This document shows, in pieces, positions 256 to 52,208 of a stretch of DNA of 64,000 bases. Each line of letters starts with the position of its first letter. Position 1 is the stretch's first letter. Made by a program: the position numbers and the translations under genes. The notes under the pieces are model-generated. The model was not told the DNA's origin. It saw only the letters and a list, made by a program, of their open reading frames with translations, and ran no database searches. Source of the DNA: a virus (Duplodnaviria; Heunggongvirae; Uroviricota; Caudoviricetes); the IMG/VR virus record IMGVR_UViG_3300032086_002076, positions 10,351 to 74,350 of that record, one strand, 5' to 3'.

Positions 256-684
256 TTAGTAACTCCATACCCATCTTTCTTCAAGAGGTCTTGGGTCTAT
301 GTGTATGAATCTCTTACTGTGTTCACCTTTTTGACTAACCCCTATACCGTTCCAGTATTCTCCCATCTTGAAGATAGCTACGAGTATCCTAGAGGCTTTA
401 GCTCCTGAACATTTAATATCAAAAGCTGCTCTGTTGTGCCAACCTGCTTTTCCTACCTTTTTTATCTTAGCGGCTTCTATTGGATGGTATTCACACCTAA
501 AAGCAGAAGATAATGGTAATGACTCGTTAGCTATACCTCTAAGTGCTTCTAAATTTAAAAGAGCAAATACAAACTCATCACTATCATTGAATTTTGGACA
601 TCTGGGGTCTCCACAGCGACAAGCTAACTCATCGTCTGTGAAGTGGGTGACATTATAACCTAGTTTTTGGTAATGCTCTGACAT
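256..684 (-). CDS. peptidase M15-like (L-alanyl-D-glutamate / D-Ala-D-Ala peptidase family), possible endolysin
   Basis: Zn-ligand-like motifs: WHNRAAFD (H..D) and a C-terminal HID. Size 142 aa. Confidence 0.5.
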   Translation of the reverse strand: MSEHYQKLGYNVTHFTDDELACRCGDPRCPKFNDSDEFVFALLNLEALRGIANESLPLSSAFRCEYHPIEAAKIKKVGKAGWHNRAAFDIKCSGAKASRILVAIFKMGEYWNGIGVSQKGEHSKRFIHIDPRPLEERWVWSY

Positions 685-687
685 AGG

Positions 688-1194
688 TTACTCTCTTTTG
701 GTTAATAGAGATAACACTTCGTTTTTAAGTTTTGCAAATGCTAATTCTCTATCTACTTCAATTTCTGGATGTGAATCTAAAATCTTAATAAGAGCTTTCT
801 TAGATTTAGTTTCATTAACTAGAGATAGTGTGTCTTTTTCTTCTTGTACAACAACTTCTGTACCTTCTTCAGTGACCTGAATAGTAGACTCATCGTTACC
901 GTCAGTAGTGTCAGTAGTATCATCAGAAGAACTATCAGAGTCTGTATCAGAGCTTCCGTTATCTTCCCCAGAAGAATCTTTATCTTTTCCTTCACCGTCT
1001 TTATCTCCGTCATCTTTGTCTTCTTCAATAACTTCTTCTTCTAGTACAAAGTCTGCATACTTGTTAGTATTAACACCTGTGAAGAAAACACTGCTTTCAT
1101 CTAGTTCATAACCTTTCTTAACCAGATTAACGATATCTTTAATAAATTCTACAGGGTCATACCTGTTTACTTTTACTCTTGTAATCTTACTCAC
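688..1194 (-). CDS. hypothetical acidic protein (D/E/S-rich centre)
   Basis: 168-aa ORF in the collinear block with a low-complexity acidic stretch. Confidence 0.45.
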   Translation of the reverse strand: MSKITRVKVNRYDPVEFIKDIVNLVKKGYELDESSVFFTGVNTNKYADFVLEEEVIEEDKDDGDKDGEGKDKDSSGEDNGSSDTDSDSSSDDTTDTTDGNDESTIQVTEEGTEVVVQEEKDTLSLVNETKSKKALIKILDSHPEIEVDRELAFAKLKNEVLSLLTKRE

Positions 1195-1643
1195 TATTTT
1201 AAATCCTCTATAAATTGTTTAATCATATTTTCTACTTTCTGGTTCTTTCTAAGTTTAACACCAAAATTTGAGGCATATTCAGCAAGCTCGTCTTTTGTTT
1301 CAAATGTTTTAACTAAGTCCCAGTCAGGTAAACCTTTTTGATTTTCCTGTTTAGATACTTCTTTAAGTTCTTCCAAGTCTTCATTTTCTTGGAATTCTTC
1401 ATCTTTGTAAGAAAAACCTTCTTGAGGCTTTATCAAGGTCGCTGTCTTGTAAATCGTAGAAACTCTAGCAGTATTGGGTACGTAAATGTAACCTTCCTGT
1501 ACTTTCTTCTGAAATTCTGACATGAATTTGTCTACAAATGATGTGAATATTGTTTCTTCTTTAAGACACTCTTGTGGAGTATCCTCTTCTATGTTTTCTG
1601 ACATTATTCCTCCTGTTTTAAAAATCATATAAAATGATAACAT
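1194..1643 (-). CDS. hypothetical protein
   Basis: 149-aa ORF; its start overlaps the downstream gene's stop (ATGA-type coupling). Confidence 0.5.
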   Translation of the reverse strand: MLSFYMIFKTGGIMSENIEEDTPQECLKEETIFTSFVDKFMSEFQKKVQEGYIYVPNTARVSTIYKTATLIKPQEGFSYKDEEFQENEDLEELKEVSKQENQKGLPDWDLVKTFETKDELAEYASNFGVKLRKNQKVENMIKQFIEDLK

Positions 1644-1714
1644 TAAAACATAATTTTGTCAAGGATTTTATTACGCGTTGCGAAACAGGGGTTAGGGTAA
1701 CCCCCATAATTATT

Positions 1715-2206
1715 TTATATTAAATCTAGAAAAGATAACAAAACACTTGCAAATAAAATAAATATAACCACAGACACCCCAACAAATACGCTCTTAGAGA
1801 CATCTTCATTAATTTGATGGTACTCCTGCATATAACTTTTAGCTTCTTCTGCAATCAATCTGTGGTCTTCCCACTGATGTCTTACTCTACTTAGTAGTTT
1901 TACATACTCTTCTTCATTCAATTTATTATGAGGACTTAAGTAATAACCTTGTGGATTAAACTCAAAACCTTGTACATTTCTTATAAAATCACCTTCACAG
2001 TTAATGTGAATAATCTCAAGCTCTTGTAAGAAGATGGTTCCTTTATTCTTCTTAACTGTTGAAACATCCACCATTAATTTGATGAGACTGTTAAAGTTAC
2101 CTCTACTAGTGATGTAAAAGAACCTAGTATTCGATACAGAACCTGAGTTCAGTAACCTCTTATATTCTAATATCTTCCCAAGCACTTCTGTTGTATTATC
2201 CCACAT
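1715..2206 (-). CDS. hypothetical protein with C-terminal TM helix
   Basis: 163-aa ORF with a hydrophobic C-terminus (VVIFILFASVLLSFL). Confidence 0.45.
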   Translation of the reverse strand: MWDNTTEVLGKILEYKRLLNSGSVSNTRFFYITSRGNFNSLIKLMVDVSTVKKNKGTIFLQELEIIHINCEGDFIRNVQGFEFNPQGYYLSPHNKLNEEEYVKLLSRVRHQWEDHRLIAEEAKSYMQEYHQINEDVSKSVFVGVSVVIFILFASVLLSFLDLI

Positions 2207-2498
2207 CTTTCTTAGGCTCCTTAAAATTCTCTACCAATAAAACCCAAATATCATATTTGAGGAAAGGGAAAGCTTCTGTGAATAAATCTTCTCTAGTTAG
2301 AGATAACTTAGCCATCTCCCACTTACTAACCTTAAAACCTGTCTTCTCAACCACCTGCTCATACCTTGTACAAGCTAACCAGAATAAGATAGGTTTCCAG
2401 AAACGATTAGATTTATCTGCTGGACTCTTTTGCTCTCTCATAACATGGTACATGTAATATGGAGTTCTTCTAAATGCTAAATAAAATAATTTACCCAT
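2196..2498 (-). CDS. hypothetical protein
   Basis: 100-aa ORF collinear with its neighbours; preferred over the overlapping plus-strand ORF 2191..2457. Confidence 0.4.
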   Translation of the reverse strand: MGKLFYLAFRRTPYYMYHVMREQKSPADKSNRFWKPILFWLACTRYEQVVEKTGFKVSKWEMAKLSLTREDLFTEAFPFLKYDIWVLLVENFKEPKKDVG

Positions 2499-2691
2499 GA
2501 GGAATAAACCCCCTGTAATCCCCAGTATATGGGTCTAAAAATACTGTACCCTCTTCAGTAGGAAAACTAACACTATGAGGTTGCTCTAAGTCTTCCAAAG
2601 ACGACAAATAATTACCAAACGCTTTTTGAACCTCTAAAATATCCTCTTCAGGGATAAAATCCCCCCTATATAAACCTCTCTCTTGAATCAT
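2491..2691 (-). CDS. hypothetical protein
   Basis: 66-aa ORF with start/stop overlaps to both neighbours. Confidence 0.35.
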   Translation of the reverse strand: MIQERGLYRGDFIPEEDILEVQKAFGNYLSSLEDLEQPHSVSFPTEEGTVFLDPYTGDYRGFIPHG

Positions 2692-2882
2692 AATATCTCC
2701 TCTTTATAACAGCCACAAGGCCAACAAGTTAGGTGATTACCTTCAATTAATTCATAATTGACCTCTGAACCACACTTTGAACAACCCTCTCTAAACCTGA
2801 TTACACGCATATTGTAACTCCTCTCGTTACACTTAAACATGTTAATTTTACTACAAATAACACCAAAATCTTCTTCTGACAT
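2688..2882 (-). CDS. small zinc-ribbon protein
   Basis: CxxC...CxxC...CxxC cysteine pattern in 64 aa. Confidence 0.4.
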   Translation of the reverse strand: MSEEDFGVICSKINMFKCNERSYNMRVIRFREGCSKCGSEVNYELIEGNHLTCWPCGCYKEEIL

Positions 2883-2990
2883 GGTAAAAGTCCTCTAAAA
2901 TAGACATTTAACCCTCCTACAATGACTTAAGTGGTCATTTCTTTCATTTTTGGTATAAAAAGCTTACTTTTAACTCTTTTTCGTAATAAT

Positions 2991-3236
2991 TTAGTCTTCA
3001 ATAACTAATTCCTCTATCTTTTCTTTCCAAACAATACCATTATCATCTAATAAACCTCTAAGTCTAGTTATTTCAGAATATAGACATTGTTGCGTTAGAT
3101 TATTACTCTCTCTGTCTGATAAAAGAGTAGAATCTGCTATTTTAGCTAATTCTATCATGTGTCTTTCAGACCGCTTACCGTTGTATAGGTAATTCTTCAT
3201 TGTTCTTGTGAAAAAACCTTCTTTTTTATTCTCCAA
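2991..3236 (-). CDS. hypothetical protein
   Basis: 81-aa ORF. Confidence 0.4.
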   Translation of the reverse strand: MENKKEGFFTRTMKNYLYNGKRSERHMIELAKIADSTLLSDRESNNLTQQCLYSEITRLRGLLDDNGIVWKEKIEELVIED

Positions 3237-3420
3237 AGCTAATAATCTCCTCTAGTTTTAATCTTGAGTACTTGATAGGTCGATAACCTTTACACTTTCT
3301 AGCATAGGAACCATCGTTAGAGACATTGTAGTCAAATTTACCACAAATACCGTCTCTGTTTCTACCCCAACCAGCTATCTTCTTGTAAAAAGCACAATTA
3401 CCACACCTTCTCTGTCTCAT
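3226..3420 (-). CDS. small Cys-rich (zinc-binding?) protein
   Basis: CGNC...C...C...C pattern in 64 aa. Confidence 0.4.
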   Translation of the reverse strand: MRQRRCGNCAFYKKIAGWGRNRDGICGKFDYNVSNDGSYARKCKGYRPIKYSRLKLEEIISFGE

Positions 3421-3580
3421 ACTAATATCTCCTAATTAATTTAGAAATACCATGATATCACCTAAAAAGGTATTTGTCAATGTATCACTATAATCACTAT
3501 CTATATAAGTAGTGTTTTACTAGTTTTTGTTAAAAATCACTAAAATAATCACTTTATTTCATTTATTTTAATAAATATCC

Positions 3581-3609
3581 TTGACAAAGGTTATTTTCCA
3601 TGCTACCCT
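3581..3609 (+). promoter_or_regulatory. TTGACA-N17-TACCCT element, copy 1 (13-nt core tccatgctaccct)
   Basis: Sequence ccTTGACAaaggttattttccatgcTACCCT. The same 13-nt core with an identically spaced TTGACA recurs at 14531..14559. No plus-strand gene lies downstream here. Confidence 0.35.
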
Positions 3610-3947
3610 ATACCTATCTTTCGAGGTAGTTAAGCGAGAGATTTTTAAAGGACACTTAAAAAGACTCTTTATAGAATATTTTATGAATCACTAATACAAA
3701 GACTCTTTTTTATCACTACGTTCTTGTATAAGAGTTTTCTCATCTAGAGGAAACCTTATAAACACTTAGAGATTATTAGTTAAAACCTTATGAATATTTA
3801 TAGATTCATTTATAGATACTTATAAGGTACTTAATAAACATAGTGATACCTAAACTCACTAACACCCATACTAACCTAAGAAACCTATAAAGGTACTTTA
3901 ACTACCTAAAAAGTACCTTAAAGTGACTATTAAGGGGAATTAATTAC

Positions 3948-4349
3948 CTATCTAGGACTACACTTAGGACAAGGACAAGCTATACCTGCTATTTTATATA
4001 AACCTGTTTGGTTAAATTCATCTTTAATACATGTATCTTCAAAAGTCTTGTCATCTAGTAAGTTATTACCTAGGTTCCAAGGTTGTTCCCATTCTTCATA
4101 ACTCTTAAACTTGAGAGGTGTACCCTCTTCTCCATAACGTCTAAGTTCAAATGGTGTAAGTTCCCATAAATTAAAAGGGTTAATTTTATCTAAACCTTCA
4201 ATATCTAATACATCTTCCTTCGTATCCAGTATATGAGCCAACACATCTACCAACACTTCCATTGTAGACCTATCTACCTCCCTACCATCAATATCCTCTA
4301 CAAGAGGGACTGGTAACCCTCTTTCTCTTACTAAATCTTGTATTCTCAT
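3948..4349 (-). CDS. hypothetical protein (C-terminal CPCPKC motif)
   Basis: 133-aa ORF. Confidence 0.45.
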   Translation of the reverse strand: MRIQDLVRERGLPVPLVEDIDGREVDRSTMEVLVDVLAHILDTKEDVLDIEGLDKINPFNLWELTPFELRRYGEEGTPLKFKSYEEWEQPWNLGNNLLDDKTFEDTCIKDEFNQTGLYKIAGIACPCPKCSPR

Positions 4350-4669
4350 AAAAATTCCCCCTCTAAGGCTTTCTTTAACTTCTCTATTCTTCTATCTCTC
4401 ATACCTAGAAGTTTATCATACTCTCCATCTTCGTAATATTGTCTAAAATAGGAGAAAGCATTTAAATATACAATACTTCCTACACAATCTTCACCTGATA
4501 CACCCCACAACCCCAATTTACACTCTATTAAAATATTACCTTTTATTAGAGGGTCTTTCCTCAAATCAACACATTCTACAAACTTCTTTAAATCAGACAT
4601 TACTTTCCTCCAAAACTTGCACCTAATACAAATAACGCTAAAAACATATAAGCCATAACAACACACCAA
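4346..4669 (-). CDS. hypothetical protein
   Basis: 107-aa ORF overlapping its neighbour by 4 nt. Confidence 0.4.
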   Translation of the reverse strand: MVCCYGLYVFSVICIRCKFWRKVMSDLKKFVECVDLRKDPLIKGNILIECKLGLWGVSGEDCVGSIVYLNAFSYFRQYYEDGEYDKLLGMRDRRIEKLKKALEGEFL

Positions 4670-5277
4670 ATAAAATTTGAACCCTCTAATACCTTAATTA
4701 CTGATGTCTTAATTACCTTTTCTATTAAGTTTTTAAACATTCTATCTCTCCTCCTTGTTCATTAAAATAACCAGTCCATTAATAATGAACTTGAGCAATT
4801 ATTATACAGCAATACTTCCTATTTGTCAATTACTCTAAACCCTCCCTAACTCTCCTTTTTTCTATAAAATTTAATTAGTAAAGTAAAAACCTTACTATAT
4901 ATCAATATCTTAGAAATATCTACTCATTCAAATCAGTCGCTAGATACTATGAGATGGTGATTCCTGTCCTTTTGGACGACCCTCACAGTTAATTAACAGA
5001 GACCTGTAAAATGTTACCCCATTTATAGTATTTATTAGTAATTCATTCTGAGGACCACCTTTTCCCCTCAAAATTAAGTCAGAGTACCTTAAAAATCACT
5101 TTTAAGAGGTTTTAAGAAATATCTAATACTATGTGATAGGTTCTAGTGAAAGACTCATACAGGCCATTATAGAGGTTTATTTTAATGTAGTTATATTTCA
5201 TTTCATATTTACTGTCTCTGTAGTTTAGGTGTCTAGCCCTCCATAGGTCTTTGTCAATACCTTTTTATAATTTTGAA

Positions 5278-5421
5278 ATATCCACAGGTTATCCACAAGA
5301 TACTAACAGGTTATTAACAGAGTTATCCACAGATATACACCCACATATCCACAGGTTACTAACAGGTTATCCCAAGGTTACTGACAATGTTATCCACAAG
5401 TTATTCAGAGGTTTATCCACA
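5278..5421 (+). promoter_or_regulatory. cluster of seven DnaA-box-like 9-mers (candidate replication origin)
   Basis: aTATCCACA 5278-5286, TTATCCACA 5289-5297, TTATCCACA 5323-5331, aTATCCACA 5345-5353, TTATCCcAa 5367-5375, TTATCCACA 5390-5398, TTATCCACA 5413-5421. All are in the same orientation inside a 1.5-kb non-coding, AT-rich region. Confidence 0.6.
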
Positions 5422-5565
5422 GGTATAACTGGCATGTATCTTGCAGGTAATTGTTAATTCATTGTGAGTGTTAGTTAGCTATACTAATCAATATATTTAG
5501 CTATCCTAAGTAATAACCTTAGCCATACTAACTAAATAACTATGCAGTAATCATGCCAACCTATA

Positions 5566-5708
5566 TAGTTTACCTTTTGGTGTACTATTCAATCCTATTA
5601 AGTAAAGTAAAAGGTTTATTTAATATTGTACACTAAGAACTGATAATTAATTGATGGATAATTGATAAAGACTATCTAATTATTTGATAGTTTACCTTTT
5701 GGTGTACT
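5566..5708 (+). repeat. 21-bp direct repeat tagtttaccttttggtgtact (2 copies, about 100 bp apart), iteron-like
   Basis: Exact copies at 5566-5586 and 5688-5708. Further short repeats gataattRattgat (5642-5670) and cactgataa x2 (6113-6145). Confidence 0.5.
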
Positions 5709-6276
5709 GATAGATATAAGTTATGGTTATTGTAAGGTCATAGGAGGGAGCTATCAGGGGCTAGTCTATTAAATAATTCTCAACTACTTAAAAGAGTAAT
5801 TCTCAACTATGTCATAAGTACTTAACAACTACCTGATACTAACCCTATCCACTACCTACACAACCACTATTGCACTCTAATCTAATCTATGTTAGACACC
5901 CTAAAACAACCCCCTAGCACACTGAGTAATCATTGTAAACCCCACGTTTAAACACTCTGTATTGTCCTGTATCAAGACTTTAGAATGACCTATAACAATG
6001 TATTAGTGCTATTGAAATCTCTTAATCTATGAGAATTTAGCTAATTTAAAGGTCTCTATGGTGGGTATGTGGTTATGATAGGTTATTACAGGTTAATTAA
6101 GAATGAATGTAGCTATCACTGATAATTAGATGATAGTTCACTGATAAAGGTTGTTAATACATTCTAGCGATTGATTTAGAGCCTTAGATAGTAATTAATA
6201 GTTACCTTGGGGATTATTGACAGGTAATAAAAAGCCCTCGTTAGAGGGCTGTTAGAGTGGTACTTGAAAGTATTAC

Positions 6277-6471
6277 TTATTTAATTACTCTTATGCCCCT
6301 AGGAAATGCTCTCTGTAATTTTCTGGTCAAGTGTTTACAATCTTTTGTATGTAATCCACCATTACTGGTGTAACTAGATATTCTAGTAAATAGATTAGAT
6401 GCTTGACGGTCTTCTAATACCTCAGAGTTATTAAATCTATTTGCTAAGCTATTTTTGATTTTAAATGACAT
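6277..6471 (-). CDS. hypothetical protein
   Basis: 64-aa ORF. Confidence 0.4.
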   Translation of the reverse strand: MSFKIKNSLANRFNNSEVLEDRQASNLFTRISSYTSNGGLHTKDCKHLTRKLQRAFPRGIRVIK

Positions 6472-6473
6472 TT

Positions 6474-6638
6474 TTAAACACCTCGCAGGTTAAGTTCTTT
6501 CTGGACAAGTTGTAGAGTCTTCTGTGCCCTTGCTCTATTACCTTTTAAGAATCTAACACCTTTTAATCTATCTATCAGGTTAATTAGTCGTTTTTCTTCC
6601 TTAAGTAAAAATTGATTACTTTCTGTTCTAGGGTTCAT
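6474..6638 (-). CDS. small basic hypothetical protein (54 aa, absent from the ORF track)
   Basis: ATG preceded by the same AGGTGATTAAA-ATG cassette as gene 6666..7172; the stop abuts the next gene. Confidence 0.3.
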   Translation of the reverse strand: MNPRTESNQFLLKEEKRLINLIDRLKGVRFLKGNRARAQKTLQLVQKELNLRGV

Positions 6639-6665
6639 TTTAATCACCTGTTTAGTTTAGTTTGA

Positions 6666-7172
6666 TTATTCTACTAGCAAGTATCTTTCTACTAGTTCCT
6701 TTGCATGTTTCATAGAGTCGCAAGTACTACTATACAATTTAGATTGTAAAGCTCCATTTCTGAAAACTCTAATAGTCCATTTGTTACCCTTGTTATTTCT
6801 ATATATTCTTACTTTATCAATATCACTGATAAATAAATCATTATTTCTCTGTGAGTCATAAACAAACATTTTAGTAGTATTAGAATCTGGTATTAAGTTA
6901 GTTCTAGTGTACTTAATTTGCTCTCTGCTAGCTTTGTTTAGTAACTGTACTAATGATTCGATAATATTAGTTAGTAGTGTATTATCCACCCTAATACTCT
7001 TTTCCACTTCAAAGAATCTAATTGATAGAGTCAAATAGTCTATATTATCAGTGATAATGACACTCTCTATCTCTTTTGGTAATTTGTTAGTTAGTTCTAA
7101 AATAGTAGTATATTTTGGGCTAATAGAAGTTTTGAAAGTTAAAGAGTTGTTTGTATATTTCATTTTAATCAC
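6666..7172 (-). CDS. hypothetical protein
   Basis: 168-aa ORF with the RBS cassette aaacaggtgattaaaATG. Confidence 0.5.
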   Translation of the reverse strand: MIKMKYTNNSLTFKTSISPKYTTILELTNKLPKEIESVIITDNIDYLTLSIRFFEVEKSIRVDNTLLTNIIESLVQLLNKASREQIKYTRTNLIPDSNTTKMFVYDSQRNNDLFISDIDKVRIYRNNKGNKWTIRVFRNGALQSKLYSSTCDSMKHAKELVERYLLVE

Positions 7173-7191
7173 CTGTTTAGTTAAAGTTTGA

Positions 7192-7458
7192 TTAGCACAT
7201 TAAATCACATTTACTAGTTGTGTAGTCTTGTCCTTGTAGTTTGACAACTCCGTATTGGTCAGTGCCTGAGAGTTTGCACAACTCGCTAAAAGCATTGTCC
7301 ATTTGTTCTTGATAGAATTGCATACTCATAATTAGAGCTTGTTCTTTGGCTTGTTTTTCGTTAGTAGTTACTGTATTAGTAAAGTATTTCTTGCCTGAGA
7401 ACACTGCAAAACTGTTACTATTATTCAATTTTTTAGCATTATATTTCATTTTAAACAC
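7192..7458 (-). CDS. hypothetical protein (N-terminus MFKMKY, similar to the 6666..7172 product)
   Basis: 88-aa ORF with a related RBS (aggtgtttaaaATG). Confidence 0.45.
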   Translation of the reverse strand: MFKMKYNAKKLNNSNSFAVFSGKKYFTNTVTTNEKQAKEQALIMSMQFYQEQMDNAFSELCKLSGTDQYGVVKLQGQDYTTSKCDLMC

Positions 7459-7586
7459 CTAGTTATATAAGTAGTACTTGTTTAAAGTTTGGGAAAATTC
7501 CCGCCAACAATTAGAGGATAGCAAAAAAGCCCTGAATAAGTCAATACTCAGAGCTTAAATAATTAATATATTTTTAAGTTAATTAA

Positions 7587-7799
7587 TTAGTAGTAAGGTT
7601 TAAAAGCCTCATCATTGTAATCTAGTGTGTTTCCTCTGATATAGAATATTAATTCGCCTTCGTTATTGTATATAGGAGAGGCTTCCCCTTTTAAGGTTAA
7701 TACAAATTCTTTCTCGCTTGTATAGAACACAGTCCCCGCTGTATACACCCTGTCACCTAAAACTTGGTCCCTAGTTAGGTATACTTTGAAAACATCCAC
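7587..7799 (-). CDS. hypothetical protein
   Basis: 70-aa ORF. Confidence 0.4.
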   Translation of the reverse strand: MDVFKVYLTRDQVLGDRVYTAGTVFYTSEKEFVLTLKGEASPIYNNEGELIFYIRGNTLDYNDEAFKPYY

Positions 7800-8210
7800 T
7801 TATGCAACCTCCTTGAGAGTGTAGTACTCGTTATCAATGATAGAGTAGTCACCTTCGGGTCTAGTATCTACTTTGATTAAACTACCTGCGACACTATTAT
7901 TATTTTCTGATAAGAAAGAACATACACCAGAGCAGTACTCTATTAGAGCACATTCTTGATTAGTTAATTCTAGTAACTTTCTGATAAATACATGAATTAG
8001 GTTTTGTTGGTCACTATTAACACTAACTAATAGGCTAGATTCTTGATACTGTTCACCATTCTCATTTGTGTAGTGTCCTGTTATTTTCTTAGTTTTATAA
8101 TCTTTTAATAAAATAGATAAAGTATCGGTATGGTCAACCTTTCCAGTTTTATCTAAACAACCGATAAAGAAACGTCTAACTTTGAAAGCTTCTATTTGTG
8201 AGTTATTCAT
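7800..8210 (-). CDS. hypothetical protein (MNNS... N-terminus)
   Basis: 136-aa ORF preceded by a consensus promoter and the conserved UTR actcactcaataactaaggttaaaaaattATG. Confidence 0.5.
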   Translation of the reverse strand: MNNSQIEAFKVRRFFIGCLDKTGKVDHTDTLSILLKDYKTKKITGHYTNENGEQYQESSLLVSVNSDQQNLIHVFIRKLLELTNQECALIEYCSGVCSFLSENNNSVAGSLIKVDTRPEGDYSIIDNEYYTLKEVA

Positions 8211-8243
8211 AATTTTTTAACCTTAGTTATTGAGTGAGTCCTA

Positions 8244-8272
8244 AATATAATGGTTTATGACATCCTTGTCAA
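8244..8272 (-). promoter_or_regulatory. sigma70-like early promoter (TTGACA-N17-TATATT) for gene 7800..8210
   Basis: The minus strand reads TTGACAaggatgtcataaaccatTATATT with an exact 17-nt spacer. Confidence 0.6.
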
Positions 8273-8280
8273 GTATATTC

Positions 8281-8823
8281 CTAAACTATTACGTAATTAG
8301 CTTTTAATATCCCTTGATGACATTTTAAAACAAAATCCGATTCGTAAGTTTCACCTTGTATGGTAATAGGTTCAAAATCTGCTATTTCATAGAATCCGGT
8401 AAACTTGGCTAATTGGTTAACATAATCAATAGCAACTATAGAACTAGCGCTTTCATCGTTTGGTGCATAATATGAACAATCTTTAGTTATATAGACTAGT
8501 ATATAATCGCTAGCGTCAATATCATTCAAAATATTACTAAATGAATAATTACCACTTGTTAACTTGTTAAATAACTCGCTCTGTGCTTTGTACTCTTGAG
8601 AGTAAAAGATATTGTATAGAGTAATAGCTCTATCGTGTGCTATATCAATAGAATCGCATTCCTCATGCTCAAAAGTAGAATCTAAACAGTGCATAACGCA
8701 CCATTTACCATCCTCTAAAGTACCCATGTGATAAACTGAAAAGGGGTAGAATTCACCTATAGAATGGCCTCTTAATCCGCCGTGTACGTGGTCATGACCT
8801 TTAGTGATGTTTGAATTATTCAT
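8281..8823 (-). CDS. hypothetical protein (MNNS... N-terminus, shared 5' module with 7800..8210)
   Basis: 180-aa ORF whose UTR and first codons are duplicated from its neighbour. Confidence 0.5.
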   Translation of the reverse strand: MNNSNITKGHDHVHGGLRGHSIGEFYPFSVYHMGTLEDGKWCVMHCLDSTFEHEECDSIDIAHDRAITLYNIFYSQEYKAQSELFNKLTSGNYSFSNILNDIDASDYILVYITKDCSYYAPNDESASSIVAIDYVNQLAKFTGFYEIADFEPITIQGETYESDFVLKCHQGILKANYVIV

Positions 8824-8856
8824 AATTTTTTAACCTTAGTTAGTGAGTGAGTTTTG

Positions 8857-8885
8857 ATACTAAACGTTTATTAACTTACTGTCAA
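8857..8885 (-). promoter_or_regulatory. sigma70-like early promoter (TTGACA-N17-TAGTAT) for gene 8281..8823
   Basis: The minus strand reads TTGACAgtaagttaataaacgttTAGTAT, followed by ctcactcactaactaaggttaaaaaattATG. Confidence 0.55.
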
Positions 8886-8893
8886 CAACATAT

Positions 8894-9226
8894 TTAGTTA
8901 AATATAAAATACTTTTCTAAATCTTTGATAGTATAATCTCTCTCAAAGTGTGTATTGAACACTACTATACAATTTAATAGAAAACTACGTGTTATAGTCC
9001 CGTCGATATACTGTTGAAATCTAGCTTCTAAACTTAAATTCTTGTTAAATTTAAAACTGAGAAAAGGCATAACTTCCTTGTAGTCTCTTACAATCTCACC
9101 TATAGAACTTTCTGAGAAAGTAGCACATTCAATTTTAGTGACGTCATAGTCATCTTTAGAAGTAACTAAAAAATAAGGTCTAGATAATTCTTTTATTGCT
9201 CTTGCTTTCAATTCTTTTTTATTCAT
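8894..9226 (-). CDS. hypothetical protein
   Basis: 110-aa ORF. Confidence 0.45.
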   Translation of the reverse strand: MNKKELKARAIKELSRPYFLVTSKDDYDVTKIECATFSESSIGEIVRDYKEVMPFLSFKFNKNLSLEARFQQYIDGTITRSFLLNCIVVFNTHFERDYTIKDLEKYFIFN

Positions 9227-9228
9227 GA

Positions 9229-9501
9229 TTAAGCCGCTCTCTTGGTTGCTGTTAAATCTAAGTTATAAGATTGTAAAATTCTAGACTTACTGGTAATAGG
9301 TGCGTAAGTCTTAGCGCTATTAGTGTGTTTATTGGCATAGAACCAAACCCCACGATATTTAGTTGTCCACTTCTTTTGATGGTAAACAGTAACCAGAACA
9401 TAAACAGAATGATTGTTAATACTTCTGTAAAGGTAATCCGTTCGAGTTCCTTGTCTTTTTCTGGTCATAACTAATGTGTACTTGGTTTTGTTAATCTTCA
9501 T
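9229..9501 (-). CDS. hypothetical basic protein
   Basis: 90-aa ORF. Confidence 0.4.
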   Translation of the reverse strand: MKINKTKYTLVMTRKRQGTRTDYLYRSINNHSVYVLVTVYHQKKWTTKYRGVWFYANKHTNSAKTYAPITSKSRILQSYNLDLTATKRAA

Positions 9502-9571
9502 TTTGTAAATTCTCTTGATGTTTTATTAGTGAAATTAGAGATTAATCTATTTTAATTAATATGTCAAGCGT

Positions 9572-9814
9572 TTAATGCAGTCTTTTTAATTCTTCTTGTA
9601 ATTCTTTTATTTTGTTTTCTGTGGCTCTTTTCCAAGCTTTTGTTACATCCATATAAGGGAAATTATAACGATTAACCCCGTAGAATTCAGGTTTACCTCC
9701 TCTTTTACGAGAGTATATCATAATATTGTTTTTATCTTTCATTCCATAGATGATACTTTCACCATCTAAAGATTGAGCTACAATAGTTAATCTTATTCCG
9801 CCAATTACTTTCAT
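9572..9814 (-). CDS. hypothetical protein
   Basis: 80-aa ORF. Confidence 0.4.
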   Translation of the reverse strand: MKVIGGIRLTIVAQSLDGESIIYGMKDKNNIMIYSRKRGGKPEFYGVNRYNFPYMDVTKAWKRATENKIKELQEELKRLH

Positions 9815-10065
9815 TTTTTAACCTTCCTATTTTTACGTTGATTTTTCATTATTAATTCAAAAGCATCAATACTTAATTCATCCACTTGATATAGTGGTGG
9901 TAAAACTTCATAGTCTAAAGCTTCTAATTCTTTTGTATTATCTTTGATATCCTTAACAGGACTACTACTAGCAAAAGTAAACATTTTTTCTACTACCTTT
10001 CAATTAATATTCTCAATAGTCCTAGTCTAATTCAAGAATAAGACTATTGCAACTACTAACTGTAA

Positions 10066-10158
10066 TTATTTTGATTGCCAAATATTATGCTTTTCTCTTC
10101 TGTTCTTTCTGAGATTCTTAGCTTGTTTTCTTTCTTGCTTGGTTAATCGTTTTTGCAT
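10066..10158 (-). CDS. very small basic ORF (30 aa, MQKRLTKQERKQAKNLRKNRREKHNIWQSK)
   Basis: Preceded by the conserved actcactca UTR motif plus RBS aaagg; too short for the ORF track. Confidence 0.25.
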   Translation of the reverse strand: MQKRLTKQERKQAKNLRKNRREKHNIWQSK

Positions 10159-10215
10159 TGTTTTATACCTTTGTTTGTGAGTGAGTGTTAATAATAGTCG
10201 ATTTAGTTCTTAAAA

Positions 10216-10800
10216 TCAAGCTCTAAATATAATATTTCCTTCTAAAAGTTCATTATTAATTTTGTACCTTAATTCTTCTTTTCTTCTATGAAGATGTATA
10301 CTTAAACCTCCTAGTTTTTTACTTTCTTTCTCGATATCTTTTAATTCTTCTATTTCCTCAGTTAGTCCTAAAAACTCAGCAACAACAATTAAAGCTTCTG
10401 TATGCTGGTTGTTCTCTGTTAACTCTTCATATTCTTTAATCATTTCGTTAAAATACTTTGTTACGGGCTTTGTCGTGATATTTTCATTACTAGAATCTTC
10501 TAACAATGAAGCAGTAGATAAATCAGTAAAATCTAAAGACAATTCATCATTCAAAGCTTTCTCGACAAGTTTTTTATCTATCTTATTTGTAATAGTATTA
10601 ACAACTCTCTGAAAAATACACTTATTTTCTAGAATCATTTCATATACAAAAACCGGTGTATAATCTTCAAATAAGTCATTGATATTATCACTAACAAAAT
10701 TTAACAATTCCTCTCTTGATAATTCTTTGAAATTATCTGGTAACTGTTTAGTTAGATAAATATCAGAAGAAAATTGGGTTAATCTAGTATCTAAATCCAT
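10216..10800 (-). CDS. hypothetical acidic protein
   Basis: 194-aa ORF whose UTR contains actcactcataaacaaaagg. Confidence 0.5.
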   Translation of the reverse strand: MDLDTRLTQFSSDIYLTKQLPDNFKELSREELLNFVSDNINDLFEDYTPVFVYEMILENKCIFQRVVNTITNKIDKKLVEKALNDELSLDFTDLSTASLLEDSSNENITTKPVTKYFNEMIKEYEELTENNQHTEALIVVAEFLGLTEEIEELKDIEKESKKLGGLSIHLHRRKEELRYKINNELLEGNIIFRA

Positions 10801-10833
10801 TATCTTATCCTTTTGTTTATGAGTGAGTTAGAA

Positions 10834-11283
10834 CTATAAACCTAACTTAGTCTCAATGTCAAGACATTTAATAGGTAATAATTCATTATTTCTATGTAAT
10901 TCTACTAACTTAGTTTTTAACTTAGATATGATATTATCAAACCTTTTTATTACTTTTTGTTGGTCGCCTTTTATAGTTGTTGTTCTAATCTTTACATTCT
11001 TACAGTAATGATATGGGTTATCAGATTTAACACCACTAATGAAAGGTTTGAAATCGAATTCAAAAGTTTTAGAATCATTATTATAGTAGATAATACCTAC
11101 TGTTCTAATAATATCATTGTGTTCGATACCATTGTCGAACTCTTCCCTGTTTTTACCTAGTGTGATACCTACACATAATCCTTTACCTAAAGCAGACTTA
11201 TTAAAGTATATTCCACTTTCTGGAAAATGTTTATAAAATATTTTTTCTAGGTCTGTTTTAAATAGTTCTAGTAAATTAATCAT
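10834..11283 (-). CDS. hypothetical protein
   Basis: 149-aa ORF. Confidence 0.5.
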   Translation of the reverse strand: MINLLELFKTDLEKIFYKHFPESGIYFNKSALGKGLCVGITLGKNREEFDNGIEHNDIIRTVGIIYYNNDSKTFEFDFKPFISGVKSDNPYHYCKNVKIRTTTIKGDQQKVIKRFDNIISKLKTKLVELHRNNELLPIKCLDIETKLGL

Positions 11284-11349
11284 AATTTAAATTCTCGTTA
11301 TGTTTGAATGAAATTAGATATTAATACTTATAAAACTATTAGTCAACAA

Positions 11350-11625
11350 CTAAATATAACCTTTTGCTAATTCTTTTAAATAGTTGACATCAGAATCCTT
11401 ATGCAATACAATGCTGTCGCCTAAATACAAACTGTAAGAAAAGCCTCCTATTACTTTTTTAATGTAGAAGTAGGTTTTACCATGTTTGCTGTTAACTGTG
11501 CCAGTGAACTTTGTTCCGTCTCTTTTGTTGTTTCTACTCCAAGAGATGTTTAGTTTTTGTTTGTCTTTTGTTTCTGTGACTTGGTTGTCATTGGTGTTTC
11601 TTTGTGTGTTAATTTTTTGAGTCAT
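11350..11625 (-). CDS. hypothetical protein
   Basis: 91-aa ORF. Confidence 0.45.
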   Translation of the reverse strand: MTQKINTQRNTNDNQVTETKDKQKLNISWSRNNKRDGTKFTGTVNSKHGKTYFYIKKVIGGFSYSLYLGDSIVLHKDSDVNYLKELAKGYI

Positions 11626-11736
11626 TTAAAATTAATCTCCTATACTACAGGTTTTTGTGAAACTCTATAAATAGAGACCTCTCGTGATATTTCACACTAT
11701 TGAGACCTCTCGTGATATTTTCAATTTATAAAAATA

Positions 11737-12156
11737 TTAATCTATATCCCAGAAAGCTTTAAATACTTCATCTGTATCCTCTTTTGTTTCAAATAACATA
11801 CCTTTTTCAAAAAGTTCACGATGAGGAGTATAAAATGAATTATAACTTAAGATAGTTGTACCTACATAATTTACAAGATACACTAGTTGACCATTCACAG
11901 GTTCTTTTGCCATACCTGCTGGTATCTCTTTTTGTTTTAATAACCTAGTAGGTTTAATTACTTTATAATCTTTAAAAGATTTTGTAAAAGAAAGAGTATT
12001 ACTATCTTCACTAAAACCAAAAAGTACTATTTTATAACCTTCAACAAACATTTTTATTAATTTTATATTTTCCCTAGGAACACCTAGTCTATTAACAATA
12101 GTTGTTTCCCCTAGAATATCTAACAACCTTTTCCACTCTTCTCTAGTATAACTCAT
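11737..12156 (-). CDS. hypothetical protein
   Basis: 139-aa ORF. Confidence 0.5.
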   Translation of the reverse strand: MSYTREEWKRLLDILGETTIVNRLGVPRENIKLIKMFVEGYKIVLFGFSEDSNTLSFTKSFKDYKVIKPTRLLKQKEIPAGMAKEPVNGQLVYLVNYVGTTILSYNSFYTPHRELFEKGMLFETKEDTDEVFKAFWDID

Positions 12157-12198
12157 TTAATTTCTCCTATTCGGTTAAGTGTTTAAATTATAGTTTAA

Positions 12199-14361
12199 TT
12201 ACTCTTCTATAGCAAGAACTTTGTTAACTAATTCTATATAATGTTTCTTATCATTATAACTGTACAAAGAATCATTATAAATTAAAGGAAAGTTCTCTTT
12301 AAAGAAATCCTCTTCTTTATTTAAAATTTCTGTGTACTTATCAGCATAGAAACCTAAGTAGTAATTCATTTTAGCATTAGGTCTTATACCAATCCTATTA
12401 GCTAGATAAAGAGTAGAGTTATTCTTAAAAATCTCAAACTTATCTAAGTTTTTTCTATAGTTAATACTGTATATTTTATCATCCTTTAAAGAAGTACTTA
12501 AGCTTTCATTTAATAAGATATCTTCAATAATAGAAGGACAAGTATTACTTAGTGCTCCATATTTTGCAATTTTCTTTATATATTTAGTTTTTAATTTAGG
12601 TTCTAGAAACTTACTAAGCTCTTCTATAGTGATTTCCTTTAAGCCTTCCGGTATATATTTCTTAGCTACACTTGAGCGTAACAGGTATAAACTATCTTTG
12701 TCTACAAAACCAGAATTAATTAAGTTTTTACAAAAAGTATAAGTATTAAGGTACTCTCTATCACCTAGTTTGAAATTCTTTCTAAACATCTTAAGATAAT
12801 AACCTTTTGTGTCAGAAGGTATACTGTTTTTTGATTCAATATTTATATCATAATCTTTACCGTATTTATAAGTTTCAACCTTGAAAAGTCCTGATAGTTT
12901 AACGTACTCTCTTTTAACTTTAGGGAAGTAACTTTCATAATTATCTTTAACACTAATTACAGTTACAAAACCACAATATTTTTCTAAAACATCTACAACG
13001 TTTTGAGTACTAGTTAGTACGACATAAATACTACCACTTTTTTCAGAATACTCTTTAGCAAACTTGATACCTCCTTGTCCTCTATCATTAAAAACAACAT
13101 TTACTACGTCTTTGTTGTGTTTGTTTAATAAGGTTAAATCTAGTAGGCTCTTTAGGTGGTCAGTAGTATCCCATCTGCTTTTTCTTATATACCTTACCTT
13201 TCTGTTTAAGTCGTCTTCTTCAATCTTCTCTTGTAGATTAAGAGATAAACTTTTACCTTTAAACTGTAACCATTTAGGGTATACAAAATATTGTGTGGGT
13301 ATTTCTTTCCCTTCTTCCTCTAAAGTCTTTAATTCTTTTTCAGAAGGTTTTCTGTACTCGTAGTTATTTTCTGTTTTTAAATAGTAACTCTCTCTAAGTT
13401 TTAGGAAAACTTCACTTAAATCTTTACAATCGTCTATTTCTTTCTGGATAATTTTTTTATAACTATCTTTAATTTCAGAAACTCTCTCTGTGATAGCTTT
13501 TGTAGTTTCTTCATCCATAGATAAAGTCTCTCTACTAGCAGCTACCGATAAATCTCCAAGTTCAAAAGGTAAGATAATATTTGTTTTATGTACCTTAAGT
13601 AGGTTTGATTTCAACGGTTCAATAAAATCATTAGAAACTCTATAACAAACTCCCCCCATAGAAGCGTATACACTAGATTGCCAGATACTTTCATCTTTGT
13701 GTAAGATGTATTTACCTTTATCCACTAGTACTACGTTTTCTAGTTCTTCTCTCATATCACTACTATTCTCAACATTCACAGGATAGTTAAAATATTTTAA
13801 GAAGTTAAAAGTTTCTTTGTAAAAAGTACTGTGGTCTACAGAACTAATATGTAACTTAACCTCTAAACCTGTAGGTTCATCACTAGGTAAGCTAATAAGT
13901 TTAGTGACATTAGGTATACCATTCTCTAAATGTACAGTATATTGCGATTCTACACCATCAAACCAAGAGGTTACAGTGAAACTATCTGTATAAGAGAAGG
14001 GACTCTTACAACCAATACCTTTAGCCCCTACATAATCATTAGATTCTCTCTTAGTAGAGTGACCAAACCTTAAATATCTCTGCATAACATCTTTTTCAGA
14101 CATACCTACGCCATAGTCTCTTACAGACCACCAAGGTTGTAGTGTATTAGGTACATTAATCTTAATAGGTGTTTCTTCACCTTTTTCTACTTGGGAATCT
14201 TTAGCATTACATATGATTTCCCTTACGATGGCTTGTTCCTTATCTTCATAAATACCATCAAATAACAGTTTAAACATTTCAGGAGTCATTTCAATAGATG
14301 CTTGACTTACATCTAAATTACTACTTTTGATAACTTCTTCATATTTTGTGTTCTCAATCAT
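12199..14361 (-). CDS. GHKL-superfamily (HATPase_c; Hsp90/MutL/MORC-like) ATPase, 720 aa
   Basis: N-box REIICNAKDS, G1 box RDYGVGMSEKDV, G2 box GAKGIGCKSPFSYTDSFTV, all in the N-terminal 150 aa. No TOPRIM or recognisable partner domain was seen. Confidence 0.55.
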   Translation of the reverse strand: MIENTKYEEVIKSSNLDVSQASIEMTPEMFKLLFDGIYEDKEQAIVREIICNAKDSQVEKGEETPIKINVPNTLQPWWSVRDYGVGMSEKDVMQRYLRFGHSTKRESNDYVGAKGIGCKSPFSYTDSFTVTSWFDGVESQYTVHLENGIPNVTKLISLPSDEPTGLEVKLHISSVDHSTFYKETFNFLKYFNYPVNVENSSDMREELENVVLVDKGKYILHKDESIWQSSVYASMGGVCYRVSNDFIEPLKSNLLKVHKTNIILPFELGDLSVAASRETLSMDEETTKAITERVSEIKDSYKKIIQKEIDDCKDLSEVFLKLRESYYLKTENNYEYRKPSEKELKTLEEEGKEIPTQYFVYPKWLQFKGKSLSLNLQEKIEEDDLNRKVRYIRKSRWDTTDHLKSLLDLTLLNKHNKDVVNVVFNDRGQGGIKFAKEYSEKSGSIYVVLTSTQNVVDVLEKYCGFVTVISVKDNYESYFPKVKREYVKLSGLFKVETYKYGKDYDINIESKNSIPSDTKGYYLKMFRKNFKLGDREYLNTYTFCKNLINSGFVDKDSLYLLRSSVAKKYIPEGLKEITIEELSKFLEPKLKTKYIKKIAKYGALSNTCPSIIEDILLNESLSTSLKDDKIYSINYRKNLDKFEIFKNNSTLYLANRIGIRPNAKMNYYLGFYADKYTEILNKEEDFFKENFPLIYNDSLYSYNDKKHYIELVNKVLAIEE

Positions 14362-14530
14362 GTATATTTCCTCGTTTTGTTAATATGAGTGAATATTAAT
14401 ATAAATAATCACCTCTGTCAACTAAGAATCACTAAAAATCTACTTATTCTATTAAATATTCTATTTAGTTATTAAAAAATACATTAATAATAACTTAATA
14501 ATTAATTTTAAATTATTTTCAAGTGTTTGC

Positions 14531-14559
14531 TTGACAGTATTAAAAATCCATGCTACCCT
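14531..14559 (+). promoter_or_regulatory. TTGACA-N17-TACCCT element, copy 2, in the divergent intergenic region upstream of 14777
   Basis: Sequence gcTTGACAgtattaaaaatccatgcTACCCT, with the same core as at 3581. Confidence 0.4.
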
Positions 14560-14776
14560 TAGACTCCTATTTCTCAGGAGAGATAGTTCAGAGGTACTTA
14601 TAGTTTATTTAAAAGGGTTTATATAGAAACTTTTCAGTCACTAACAGGTTACTTAAAAGATAAAATCCTTTTTTAGAAGGATTGTTTGGTTAGTAATTCT
14701 ATTTTATAGTTTACTTTAGAGTTATTATATAGTACCTTATAAATACCTTATAAGTATACACAAGAGGAAAATTATA

Positions 14777-17775: not shown

Positions 17776-17960
17776 GCGCCCTTGTATATGGCAAAGCAAT
17801 TTAAACAGATAAATTATATACAATTAAAGATTGTTTTACAGCAAAAAAATTCAAGGCAACTCTGGGGACAAAGGTTCGATTCCTTTACTCTGTCAACTGA
17901 CGGAGTTCGTCTAGCGGTAGGACACCAGACAAATGAAAAGATAACAATCTGTTAGGAGGT
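17776..17960 (+). ncRNA. candidate structured ncRNA with a tRNA-like T-arm and D-arm-like segment (Y-RNA-like?)
   Basis: 190-nt ORF-free gap containing the T-arm aaaggTTCGATTccttt (17870-17886), the hairpin actctgtcaactgacggagt, and the D-arm-like gtctagcGGtaggac. It cannot be folded as a canonical tRNA. Confidence 0.3.
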
Positions 17961-39811: not shown

Positions 39812-40858
39812 TTGGACAGCGCTGCTTATAAGGGCGCTGCTGGAGTAGAGAAGAAAGAATATAAATGGATTCAATATGAAACTAAACCTGATTTAGAAAG
39901 TGAAGACAGACCAAAAATAATTGGAGAAAGTGAAGGTTTCTCTAAAGCTACTGATGCAGCTCTGTTCATGGAAAGGTTAGGTATGGCAGAAATAGAGGAT
40001 TTAGATTGTTGGGAAAGGGTATGTAATGTTGTTGTAGGTACAGAAGAAGAGACAGAGAAAACAGTTGAAGCTGCTGTTAAAGATTTTGTAGATACAGCTA
40101 AAAAGTTAAGTAAAAATAAGAAAATAAAAATAAAAGGATTCTTAACAGACTCTGGTGATAAACTTAAAACTTTACCTAAGACAGAGAATATGTACCAGTT
40201 CAACAGAGAAGGTAAAGAAAGACCTACTCACTTAGAATATGCTAGACAGTATATGCTTAAGAAATTCCCTTTTGTTTCTATGGCTAAAAAAGGTTGGGAG
40301 GCTGACACTCATTGTGTAGGTCTAGCAGAGAAAAAAGGAAAGGAAGGTGTTATACTTTCCGTAGATAAAGATTTAAAACAAGCAGAAGATACTAACTTCA
40401 TAGATATGAACGAACTACCAACTAGGAGAAAAATACTAGAAACTACTAAATTAGGTAGAGTTTGGGTAGAGGAAGATTATAAAGGTGATAAAGTTTACAA
40501 AGGAGAAGGTTTTAAGTTTCTTTGTTATCAAGCTGCTGTAGGTGACATCTCTGATGGTTATAAAGGTTTAAAAGGGTTCGGTGCAGTAGCAGGAACCAAA
40601 TTACTAGAGCCTTGTAAAACAAAAGAGGAATGTGTACAAAGTCTTTTAGAAGTTTATGAAAAGAAGCTTGCAAAAGGTGTGTTAGATAAGGCTGCTAAAG
40701 ATGCAGGTATTAAACCTAAAGAAGGATATATCAGATACCTTTCTTGGGATGGTCATAAGATGCAGTTGAATGCTAAAAAGTTATTACAACAACATTTTGA
40801 ACTAGCTTATCAAGAACGCTCACCTAAAGATAAATTTAAATTGGAGGATTATCTATGA
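39812..40858 (+). CDS. 5'-3' exonuclease / flap endonuclease (FEN; T5 D15 / T4 RNase H family)
   Basis: N-terminal LDLDSAAYKGA; VILSVDKDLKQ resembles the VSGDKDLLQL motif; H3TH-like GDISDGYKGLKGFGAVAGTKLL. Non-ATG (TTG) start. Confidence 0.6.
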   Translation: MDSAAYKGAAGVEKKEYKWIQYETKPDLESEDRPKIIGESEGFSKATDAALFMERLGMAEIEDLDCWERVCNVVVGTEEETEKTVEAAVKDFVDTAKKLSKNKKIKIKGFLTDSGDKLKTLPKTENMYQFNREGKERPTHLEYARQYMLKKFPFVSMAKKGWEADTHCVGLAEKKGKEGVILSVDKDLKQAEDTNFIDMNELPTRRKILETTKLGRVWVEEDYKGDKVYKGEGFKFLCYQAAVGDISDGYKGLKGFGAVAGTKLLEPCKTKEECVQSLLEVYEKKLAKGVLDKAAKDAGIKPKEGYIRYLSWDGHKMQLNAKKLLQQHFELAYQERSPKDKFKLEDYL

Positions 40859-52139: not shown

Positions 52140-52208
52140 GTTTTAAACTACACATACCGGAAGGTAGCACCGGATTTTGCTATCCACAACAAAAGGAAAT
52201 ATAATATT

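Follow-up and report, generated by a model that had tools for sequence, protein, structure and literature searches.

What would a bacterial replication initiator do in the genome of a phage that carries replication genes of its own? This question is raised by a gene-free island of 1.5 kb in a 64,000-nucleotide stretch of a tailed phage genome (Caudoviricetes; positions 10,351 to 74,350 of IMG/VR record IMGVR_UViG_3300032086_002076), which is hereafter called the window and to which all coordinates refer unless another record is named. The island contains a dense array of matches to the DnaA box, the binding site of the host initiator DnaA, and a preliminary description of the DNA had taken it as a candidate DnaA-dependent origin that recruits or titrates the host protein. 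Recruitment or titration of DnaA is well supported by the sequence, in which perfect boxes are spaced 9+2 bp apart and the 9-mers are conserved while the spacers vary. Use as an origin found no support in the tests made, which addressed skew, duplex stability, an unwinding element and an initiator gene. We tentatively favor the view that the island is a host-DnaA-binding module of a terminal, entry or packaging control region, a reading that draws largely on analogy with other phages.

The array is composed of 9-mers separated by spacers of 2–3 bp, chiefly GG or AG, and the starts of its 13 units lie 11–12 bp apart; Tandem Repeats Finder recorded it as 13 copies of an 11-bp unit at 5279–5424. 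When one mismatch to the consensus TTATCCACA was allowed, six matches were detected within 5278–5421, all on the plus strand. Four of them are perfect (5289, 5323, 5390 and 5413) and two are ATATCCACA (5278 and 5345), and these six are the strong boxes. The preliminary description was therefore right about a dense cluster packed into this interval in one orientation, whereas its count of "five perfect or 8/9" among seven matches has to be corrected to six. The weak units are ATACTAACA, TTATTAACA, TTACTAACA, TTATCCCAA, TTACTGACA, TTATTCAGA and one degenerate unit, with the TTAYTAACA type among them; two mismatches separate TTATTAACA (5311), TTATCCCAA (5367) and TTATTCAGA (5401) from the consensus. 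The whole window holds 34 matches to TTATCCACA with at most one mismatch (19.8 expected), and the probability of finding at least six boxes in 144 bp, calculated from the window background rate, is 8e-11.

The island was found at the same place in three uncultured relatives, namely L128, which is a TARA Oceans scaffold of 92.6 kb, L175, a JGI fragment identical to it, and L177 (NODE_3628). Its core (4841–6240) is 95.4% identical to that of the TARA relative, indels excluded, while the first, second and third codon positions of 12 neighboring orthologous genes are 93.7, 95.5 and 87.4% identical, respectively, in the same comparison (core versus third positions, Fisher p = 2e-16). Judged from this excess over third positions, purifying selection acts on all of the 1.4 kb, at a strength comparable to that on second codon positions. 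The genes directly beside the island differ in the TARA relative on either side. Within the array, all four substitutions that distinguish the two sequences (5333, 5387, 5388 and 5399) lie in spacers, so that every 9-mer is unchanged (p = 0.002; 0.008 when the adjacent pair is counted as one event), thereby indicating that constraint acts on the 9-mer units. For a third haplotype (L178), sequence is available for the right half of the island only, and here both copies of a 22-bp direct repeat, the GGTTAT units and both CACTGATAA copies are unchanged in all three haplotypes; the GATAATT stretch is likewise invariant in L178, and the substitutions at 6105, 6109 and 6113 fall between the GGTTAT units and the CACTGATAA copies. 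Considering the perfect consensus, the constrained 9-bp unit and the occurrence of the same host motif in unrelated phages (see below), there is a strong case that host DnaA binds 5278–5424, and we regard such binding as likely.

In Escherichia coli oriC, a layout of 9-mers with 2-bp spacers, one orientation and alternating strong and weak sites supports the formation of cooperative DnaA-ATP oligomers. The array described here resembles the low-affinity arrays of oriC (R1-tau-R5M-tau2-I1-I2 and R4-C1-I3-C2-C3), in which 9-mers also stand 2 bp apart in a single orientation per array. It further resembles oriC and datA in having strong sites suited to nucleate the filling of weak ones and IHF-type sites nearby; the island contains three IHF-consensus matches, where about 0.3 would be expected (~ninefold, P ~0.002). 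Since 13 co-oriented units follow each other at 11–12 bp with strong and weak boxes in alternation, a continuous oligomer of host DnaA would be expected to assemble on the array, the weak sites being filled cooperatively by DnaA-ATP from the strong anchor sites as in oriC. This expectation combines the sequence with established DnaA biochemistry. The island differs from oriC in having 13 units rather than the 5–6 of each oriC array, in lacking an opposing half-array, an adjacent 13-mer or trio unwinding element and GATC sites, and in its position, which is neither beside dnaA or dnaN nor at a skew switch.

When the island was used in a sensitive DNA search, only array-to-array matches in unrelated phages were obtained. 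The clearest counterparts occur in T7-like phages of the genera Berlinvirus and Przondovirus. Shigella phage A7 (Berlinvirus, NC_048180.1) has a 177-bp direct terminal repeat (nt 1–177 and 39882–40058, 100% identical), in which eight co-oriented boxes, four of them perfect, are arranged 11–12 bp apart (nt 22–147), and its weak variant TTATCCCCA is closely similar to TTATCCCAA of the window array. Similar arrays were found in Enterobacter phage phiEap-1 (nt 69–159) and Klebsiella phage ZK1 (nt 19–102), as well as near the ends of E. coli phage P483 and Klebsiella phage 175002, where they lie beside an end-of-repeat motif. A7, P483, 175002 and ZK1 have in common with the window at least eight co-oriented TTATCCACA-like 9-mers at 11–12 bp over ~130–150 bp, weak variants of the TTATCCCCA and TTACYCACA types, AG/GG-type spacers, and an array that reads TGTGGATAA toward downstream early sigma-70 transcription. 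In the window the array also reads TGTGGATAA along the flanking transcription, and a strong sigma-70 promoter and small genes follow ~450 bp further on; this orientation fits the T7-like layout, but it is only a coincidence of one in two. The T7-like phages belong to another virus family, and their arrays stand demonstrably at both record ends as the terminal repeat, whereas the window shows its island in a single assembled copy. The Berlinvirus terminal repeat as such is in essence an array of eight co-oriented DnaA-box 9-mers (A7; see also L127, 3001–3129, and L169, 1500–1620), and the end regions of Przondovirus records and of further T7-like ones contain related arrays.

A second parallel is provided by T5-like phages. 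Davison's comparison of 25 such phages described a 1.2-kb untranslated repeat region that straddles the end of the long terminal repeat and is more conserved than the neighboring ORFs (open reading frames) (bioRxiv 10.1101/866236). This "Repeat Region 3" holds eight DnaA boxes; the region was proposed to be the injection-stop signal (iss), and an origin role was considered unlikely (bioRxiv 10.1101/866236); the boxes of the T5 injection-stop region have been on record since 1987 (Heusterspreute, as cited in bioRxiv 10.1101/866236). DnaA boxes are also present in an ORF-free region adjoining the pre-early genes of the Vibrio T5-like phage Thalassa. The window island shares with these regions its large size (1.2–1.6 kb), the absence of ORFs, the density of repeats, a conservation exceeding that of the surrounding genes, and closely spaced consensus and variant boxes. 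The T5 boxes, however, number 7–8 and are arranged in pairs 3 bp apart, with long inverted repeats (IRD'/IRC') and a 52-bp spacer, whereas the island has 13 units in one direct array with 2–3-bp spacing and no long inverted-repeat partners (the best candidate in the island is 34 nt at 76%), and the window phage has a FelixO1-related, myovirus-type genome. In PHROG scans of the 20 ORFs beside the island (256–14361), no annotation of the T5 pre-early type was obtained, A1, A2 and dmp not having been searched for directly.

The third comparison concerns phages of a related lineage. FelixO1-like phages have terminal repeats of ~600 bp that were demonstrated experimentally (PMC4837284; also PMC8303462), and they are linked to the window phage through rIIA and the primase-helicase. 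In Felixounavirus Ro111lw (MH571750.1), of which the two record ends were examined, a 613-bp repeat lies inside an ORF-free stretch of ~1.7 kb downstream of the rIIA block, and short direct repeats are crowded into this stretch, a good number of them recurring, as judged by eye, at ~10–12 bp. A large ORF-free stretch with dense short direct repeats is found downstream of the rIIA block in the window as well.

The terminal reading is favored because the same array design is present in T7-like terminal repeats and near the boundary of T5-like repeats, and because the terminal repeat of FelixO1-like relatives is likewise housed in an ORF-free stretch dense in repeats. Further points in its favor are the enrichment of IHF-consensus matches in the island, the proximity of IMG/VR arrays to contig ends and a lineage with the array upstream of TerL and portal (see below). 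By analogy with these phages, the island would contain or adjoin the physical genome ends in the form of a short direct terminal repeat. Rather than opening an origin, the bound DnaA may act on events at the ends, for instance by holding, bending or protecting the first-entering DNA or by pausing polymerases or terminase at the repeat.

Several points weigh against this reading, the main weakness being that the physical genome ends are not located by any data here. The TARA scaffold and NODE_3628 cross the island independently and unbroken, although a collapsed terminal repeat would look identical. Any role of DnaA at T5 or T7-like termini is itself a proposal only, the T5 model included, and we found no experimental test of the function of the T5 injection-stop boxes in the literature searched. 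The terminal region of Felixounaviruses has a CTTGTTAAG-like repeat motif and no DnaA cluster, it lies between convergent gene blocks, and its comparison with the island by blastn at word size 7 returned chance-level matches only. A single close relative spans the array, so that the conservation of the boxes rests on four substitutions. Other contig ends add little: that of the TARA scaffold corresponds to window position ~18090, within coding sequence, and is uninformative on termini, and those of L175 (~6098) and L178 (~5513) do not coincide.

It is also conceivable, though doubtful, that unrelated virulent phages have repeatedly and independently acquired helically phased DnaA-box arrays as part of their terminal repeats or terminal control regions, in which case the island would hold the genome ends. 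In IMG/VR, tandem boxes at 2-bp spacing were detected in more than 120 contigs, and 50 clusters of at least four boxes were located in ORF-free stretches. Arrays lay within 300 bp of a contig end in 17 of 120 contigs, against 7.1 expected (2.4-fold), but this enrichment could reflect assemblies breaking at repeats. PHROG scans of the genes beside these arrays were uninformative. If such recurrence is real, it spans T5-like siphoviruses, T7-like Berlinviruses and Przondoviruses, a marine FelixO1-related myovirus and several uncultured lineages, and the phages would employ the host initiator not in replication but as an end-binding cofactor when DNA enters, when its ends are protected or when it is packaged.

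DnaA boxes in a non-coding repeat region of a phage are already known from T5. What is new is that an unrelated marine phage lineage carries a far more regular, oriC-style array of 13 units, and that this array sits inside a non-coding region under clear purifying selection. The T7-like phages with terminal repeats built from the same array surfaced through the follow-up comparison; in the literature searched, we found no description of DnaA-box arrays as T7-like terminal repeats or in FelixO1-related phages. A true link between array and genome ends would point to a so far unrecognized way in which phages exploit the host initiator for the entry or packaging of their DNA, for which P483 (E. 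coli) and A7 (Shigella) would be tractable models.

Two further kinds of ORF-free region were observed during these comparisons. In an uncultured lineage (G+C content 40–44%), arrays of 6–10 boxes lie in ORF-free stretches of 0.5–1.3 kb just upstream of genes for TerL (~418 aa) and portal (Table 1). A corresponding position just upstream of the terminase was considered for the window island and rejected, since the next 10 kb leftward in the TARA scaffold do not contain TerL. Alteromonas phage V22, the nearest cultured marine relative, has a 1.6-kb ORF-free, repeat-rich island (NC_048847.1, 69365–70987; L168, 19365–20987), which is located between convergent blocks, has repeats of its own (e.g. 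GGTGTCAAAAAGGT) and is free of a DnaA cluster; the publication on V22 does not report its termini.

Among the alternatives to a terminal control region, an origin at which a DnaA oligomer melts adjacent DNA and a phage or host helicase is loaded remains the strongest, although we consider it unlikely. The array has oriC-like spacing, a single orientation and strong/weak alternation, with six boxes at no more than one mismatch and three with two mismatches within 146 bp. An AT-rich 33-bp unit, duplicated in the relative, lies ~60 bp to the left, more repeats and IHF-like sites are close by, the island is insulated from transcription, and Ori-Finder predicts DnaA-box origins in related myoviruses with direct terminal repeats, a computational result only (PMC11512268). 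Against this, the cumulative GC skew is smooth across 4.7–6.3 kb, its minimum (14575) and maximum (56251) coinciding with switches of gene orientation. The least stable 40-mer of the window lies at 14470 in the divergent rIIA intergenic region, and the least stable spot of the island itself (4862) is 400 bp from the array. Nor is the island, described earlier as AT-rich, so relative to the genome, since their G+C contents are equal (0.322 and 0.325). A run of at least three in-frame TAA/TAG triplets was found neither by a regular-expression search of 4741–6276 nor by eye around the array; this check for an unwinding element was heuristic and involved no formal DnaA-trio scan. GATC is absent from the island and from the window, which makes control of the Dam/SeqA type impossible at the array. 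No initiator or helicase-loader gene was recognized among the flanking ORFs, for which PHROG scans were uninformative, and the phage carries its own T7-type primase-helicase and PolA. T7, T5 and T4 are not known to require DnaA for replication. Like arrays are found in T7-like and T5 terminal repeats, and an origin role was deemed unlikely for T5 (bioRxiv 10.1101/866236). If the array were nevertheless an origin, a virulent phage with its own T7-type replisome would still depend on DnaA, which would also be unusual.

An origin of the iteron type, such as P1 oriR or lambda ori, is not indicated either, for the 22-bp repeat has two copies only, and no family match to Rep, O or a DnaA-like protein was found in the flanking ORFs. 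The divergent intergenic region upstream of rIIA (14362–14776) holds both the 40-mer stability minimum and the skew minimum, and on these two counts the region makes a more classical candidate for an origin than the island does.

Alternatively, the array might take no part in phage DNA transactions and act as a sponge that, once amplified, soaks up DnaA-ATP and shuts off host initiation in the manner of multicopy datA. An E. coli cell is reported to contain ~1000–2000 DnaA molecules, and since each genome copy brings 13 sites, the copies of one burst would come close to this number or surpass it; the strong/weak alternation would favor capture of the ATP form, and IHF-like sites are present as at datA. 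Such a sponge would explain neither the equal conservation of the surrounding 1.4 kb nor the placement of similar arrays specifically in terminal repeats, and a block of initiation would bring little to lytic phages by which the host DNA is degraded or shut off. We therefore regard it as quite improbable.

It is very unlikely that the units are iterons for a phage protein, such as the small terminase subunit or a regulator, with an incidental match to the DnaA box. TTAYTAACA and TTACTGACA, neither of them a DnaA box, make up half of the units, Felixounavirus terminal regions use another short motif that has TTAACAG in common, and the several further repeat families of the island suggest phage-specific binders. 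T7, for its part, uses CCTAAAG-type repeats. However, accident could hardly account for six copies of a 9-bp host consensus, four of them perfect and two nearly so, and the constrained unit is 9 bp long while the 2–3-bp spacers are free to vary. The consensus moreover recurs in T5-like phages, Berlinviruses, Przondoviruses, IMG/VR lineages and microviruses, whose common factor is the host protein.

A reading of the island as the source of a long leader or of one or several non-coding RNAs, with the repeats as RNA elements, can hardly be maintained: the 1.4 kb are conserved without ORFs, weak promoter-like sites occur inside (e.g. 6157 to 6130, minus strand) and a C/A-rich tract is strand-asymmetric, but Rfam gave no match at the gathering threshold in the window or at E up to 1 in the island, folding z-scores of 120-nt sliding windows on the two strands of the island did not drop below −3 outside the terminator, where the most negative value was obtained, the array region folds worse than shuffled sequence, and in the TARA relative one −35 match of the best internal promoter is lost. 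The island is best explained as a cis-acting DNA element, neither a gene nor a structured RNA.

The coordinates of the island and its parts are listed in Table 1. As the preliminary description had noted, the region is poor in ORFs and lies between minus-strand genes; calling these genes "early" is an assumption. No other ORF-free stretch of the window is as long (the runner-up measures 527 bp). The longest ORF inside has 68 aa (5251–5457, TTG start) and is regarded as a by-product, because the repeat array reads stop-free in that frame. Both adjoining gene blocks are on the minus strand, and with a terminator on one side and a promoter on the other, flanking transcription is largely kept out of the island. 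The TARA relative has kept both hexamers of the promoter, with changes at three spacer positions, and the terminator stem is kept in the relatives with one G-C pair replaced by G-U.

Table 1. Coordinates of the non-coding island, its component elements and related arrays of an uncultured lineage
Feature	Position	Strand	Basis or remark
Conserved ORF-free island	4741–6276 (1536 bp)		ORF lists; collinear homologues in L128, L175 and L177
Consensus sigma-70 promoter, TTGACA-17-TATAAT	4801–4829	−	12/12 match; fires left into the downstream minus-strand block
AT-rich 33-bp unit, ~60 bp left of the array	5186–5218	+	Tandemly duplicated in the TARA relative (alignment)
Head-to-tail DnaA-box array, 13 units (9-mer plus 2–3-bp spacer)	5278–5424	+	Strong boxes alternate with weak ones
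13-bp imperfect palindrome TTAGCYATMCTAA, three copies at 22-bp spacing, operator-like	5475–5531 (5475, 5497, 5519)	+	Tandem Repeats Finder, period 22
Two exact 22-bp direct repeats, ATAGTTTACCTTTTGGTGTACT	5565–5586, 5687–5708	+	Flank a GATAATT/TTGATAA-rich stretch
IHF-consensus match	5677–5689	−	Between/at the 22-bp repeat region
C/A-rich, G-poor strand-asymmetric tract	5810–5950	+	11 G in 141 nt; indels between haplotypes
Second small array, GGTTAT-type units, 10-bp period	6071–6101	+	Followed by two CACTGATAA copies (6117, 6139), to 6147
Intrinsic terminator of the upstream rIIA-side operon	6233–6250	−	7-bp stem (5 G-C pairs), 4-nt loop, T-run
TerL-side arrays of the uncultured lineage	L114 12733–12881; L015 9755–9911; L041 10194–10273; L043 5976–6150; L064 7889–8022; L042 6817–6903		

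To the right of the array, the island carries further repeat families. A search for the motif TTAGCNATNCTAA returned three exact matches, all in the palindrome cluster and none elsewhere in the window. The direct repeat that had been reported as 21 bp long is indeed exact, but its length is 22 bp. When an 18-mer of this repeat was scanned against IMG/VR and JGI metagenomes, only chance matches were obtained, some in coding regions. One unrelated metagenome contig (LKMJ01023546.1; L149, 4000–4360) has a eukaryote-like 38-bp satellite containing the 18-mer, a likeness that we judged to be due to chance. The reported gataattRattgat and cactgataa repeats were confirmed, the former as two related 32-nt GATAATT/TTGATAA stretches of the GATAATT.ATTGAT type (5639–5670 and 6118–6149, 81% alike) and the latter as the two CACTGATAA copies.

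The window has a G+C content of 32.5% and encodes, besides the T7-type primase-helicase and the family-A DNA polymerase (PolA), a class II ribonucleotide reductase, NAPRTase and tail fibers; rIIA occupies 12199–14361 on the minus strand. Near-identity DNA searches of GenBank phages with the island and with 20 kb of the window gave no close match. The polymerase is ~41% identical to its counterparts in Aeromonas, Alteromonas and Vibrio myoviruses, and the primase-helicase is ~47% identical to the versions of FelixO1-like phages. The nearest relatives are uncultured marine contigs, namely the TARA Oceans scaffold (94% identity in rIIA) and, from the same population, a small number of fragments. 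No syntenic relatives were detected in IMG/VR with the flanking proteins, and distant rIIA relatives (32–43% identity; L125, L130, L132 and L133) have another synteny and are free of a DnaA cluster. Perfect or near-perfect TTGACA-17-TATAAT promoters are numerous in the window, which suggests that the host uses a classical sigma-70 and is probably a proteobacterium.

A further pair of DnaA boxes, 62 bp apart on the plus strand, was observed at 52180–52188 (CTATCCACA) and 52242–52250 (perfect TTATCCACA), 570–640 bp downstream of a 12/12 promoter (51609–51638). GATC sites, absent from the whole window, would be expected ~190 times from base composition. ATGCAT, AGATCT and TGATCA are absent as well (21.6 expected for each), and CGCG and ATCGAT occur once each (43.5 and 21.6 expected, respectively). 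This avoidance of GATC and other palindromes points to strong selection against restriction sites. An ORF on the minus strand 1.5 kb from the island (7800–8210) matches PHROG 2226, labeled "SAM-dependent methyltransferase" in PHROGs. Because its counterpart in L177 has the Pfam domain S-AdoMet_lyase, the product is probably a T3-type S-adenosylmethionine (SAM) lyase countering restriction.

A perfect 12-bp tandem repeat (AAGAAGATTTAG, 5.6 copies, 100% matches) was found at 23610–23676 within a 481-aa ORF (22973–24418), which is probably rIIB, judging from a Pfam match in the relative L129. A small ORF-free gap at ~17860–17935 contains a sequence resembling part of a tRNA, with the T-arm GGTTCGATTCC; it was called by neither ARAGORN nor Rfam and may be a decayed tRNA. 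Finally, a promoter-like motif, TTGACA-N11-CCATGCTACCCT, is common to 3581–3609 and 14531–14559 on the plus strand, with a short hairpin after each copy. One copy falls in the 527-bp ORF-free gap among minus-strand genes, where it might drive a small or antisense RNA.

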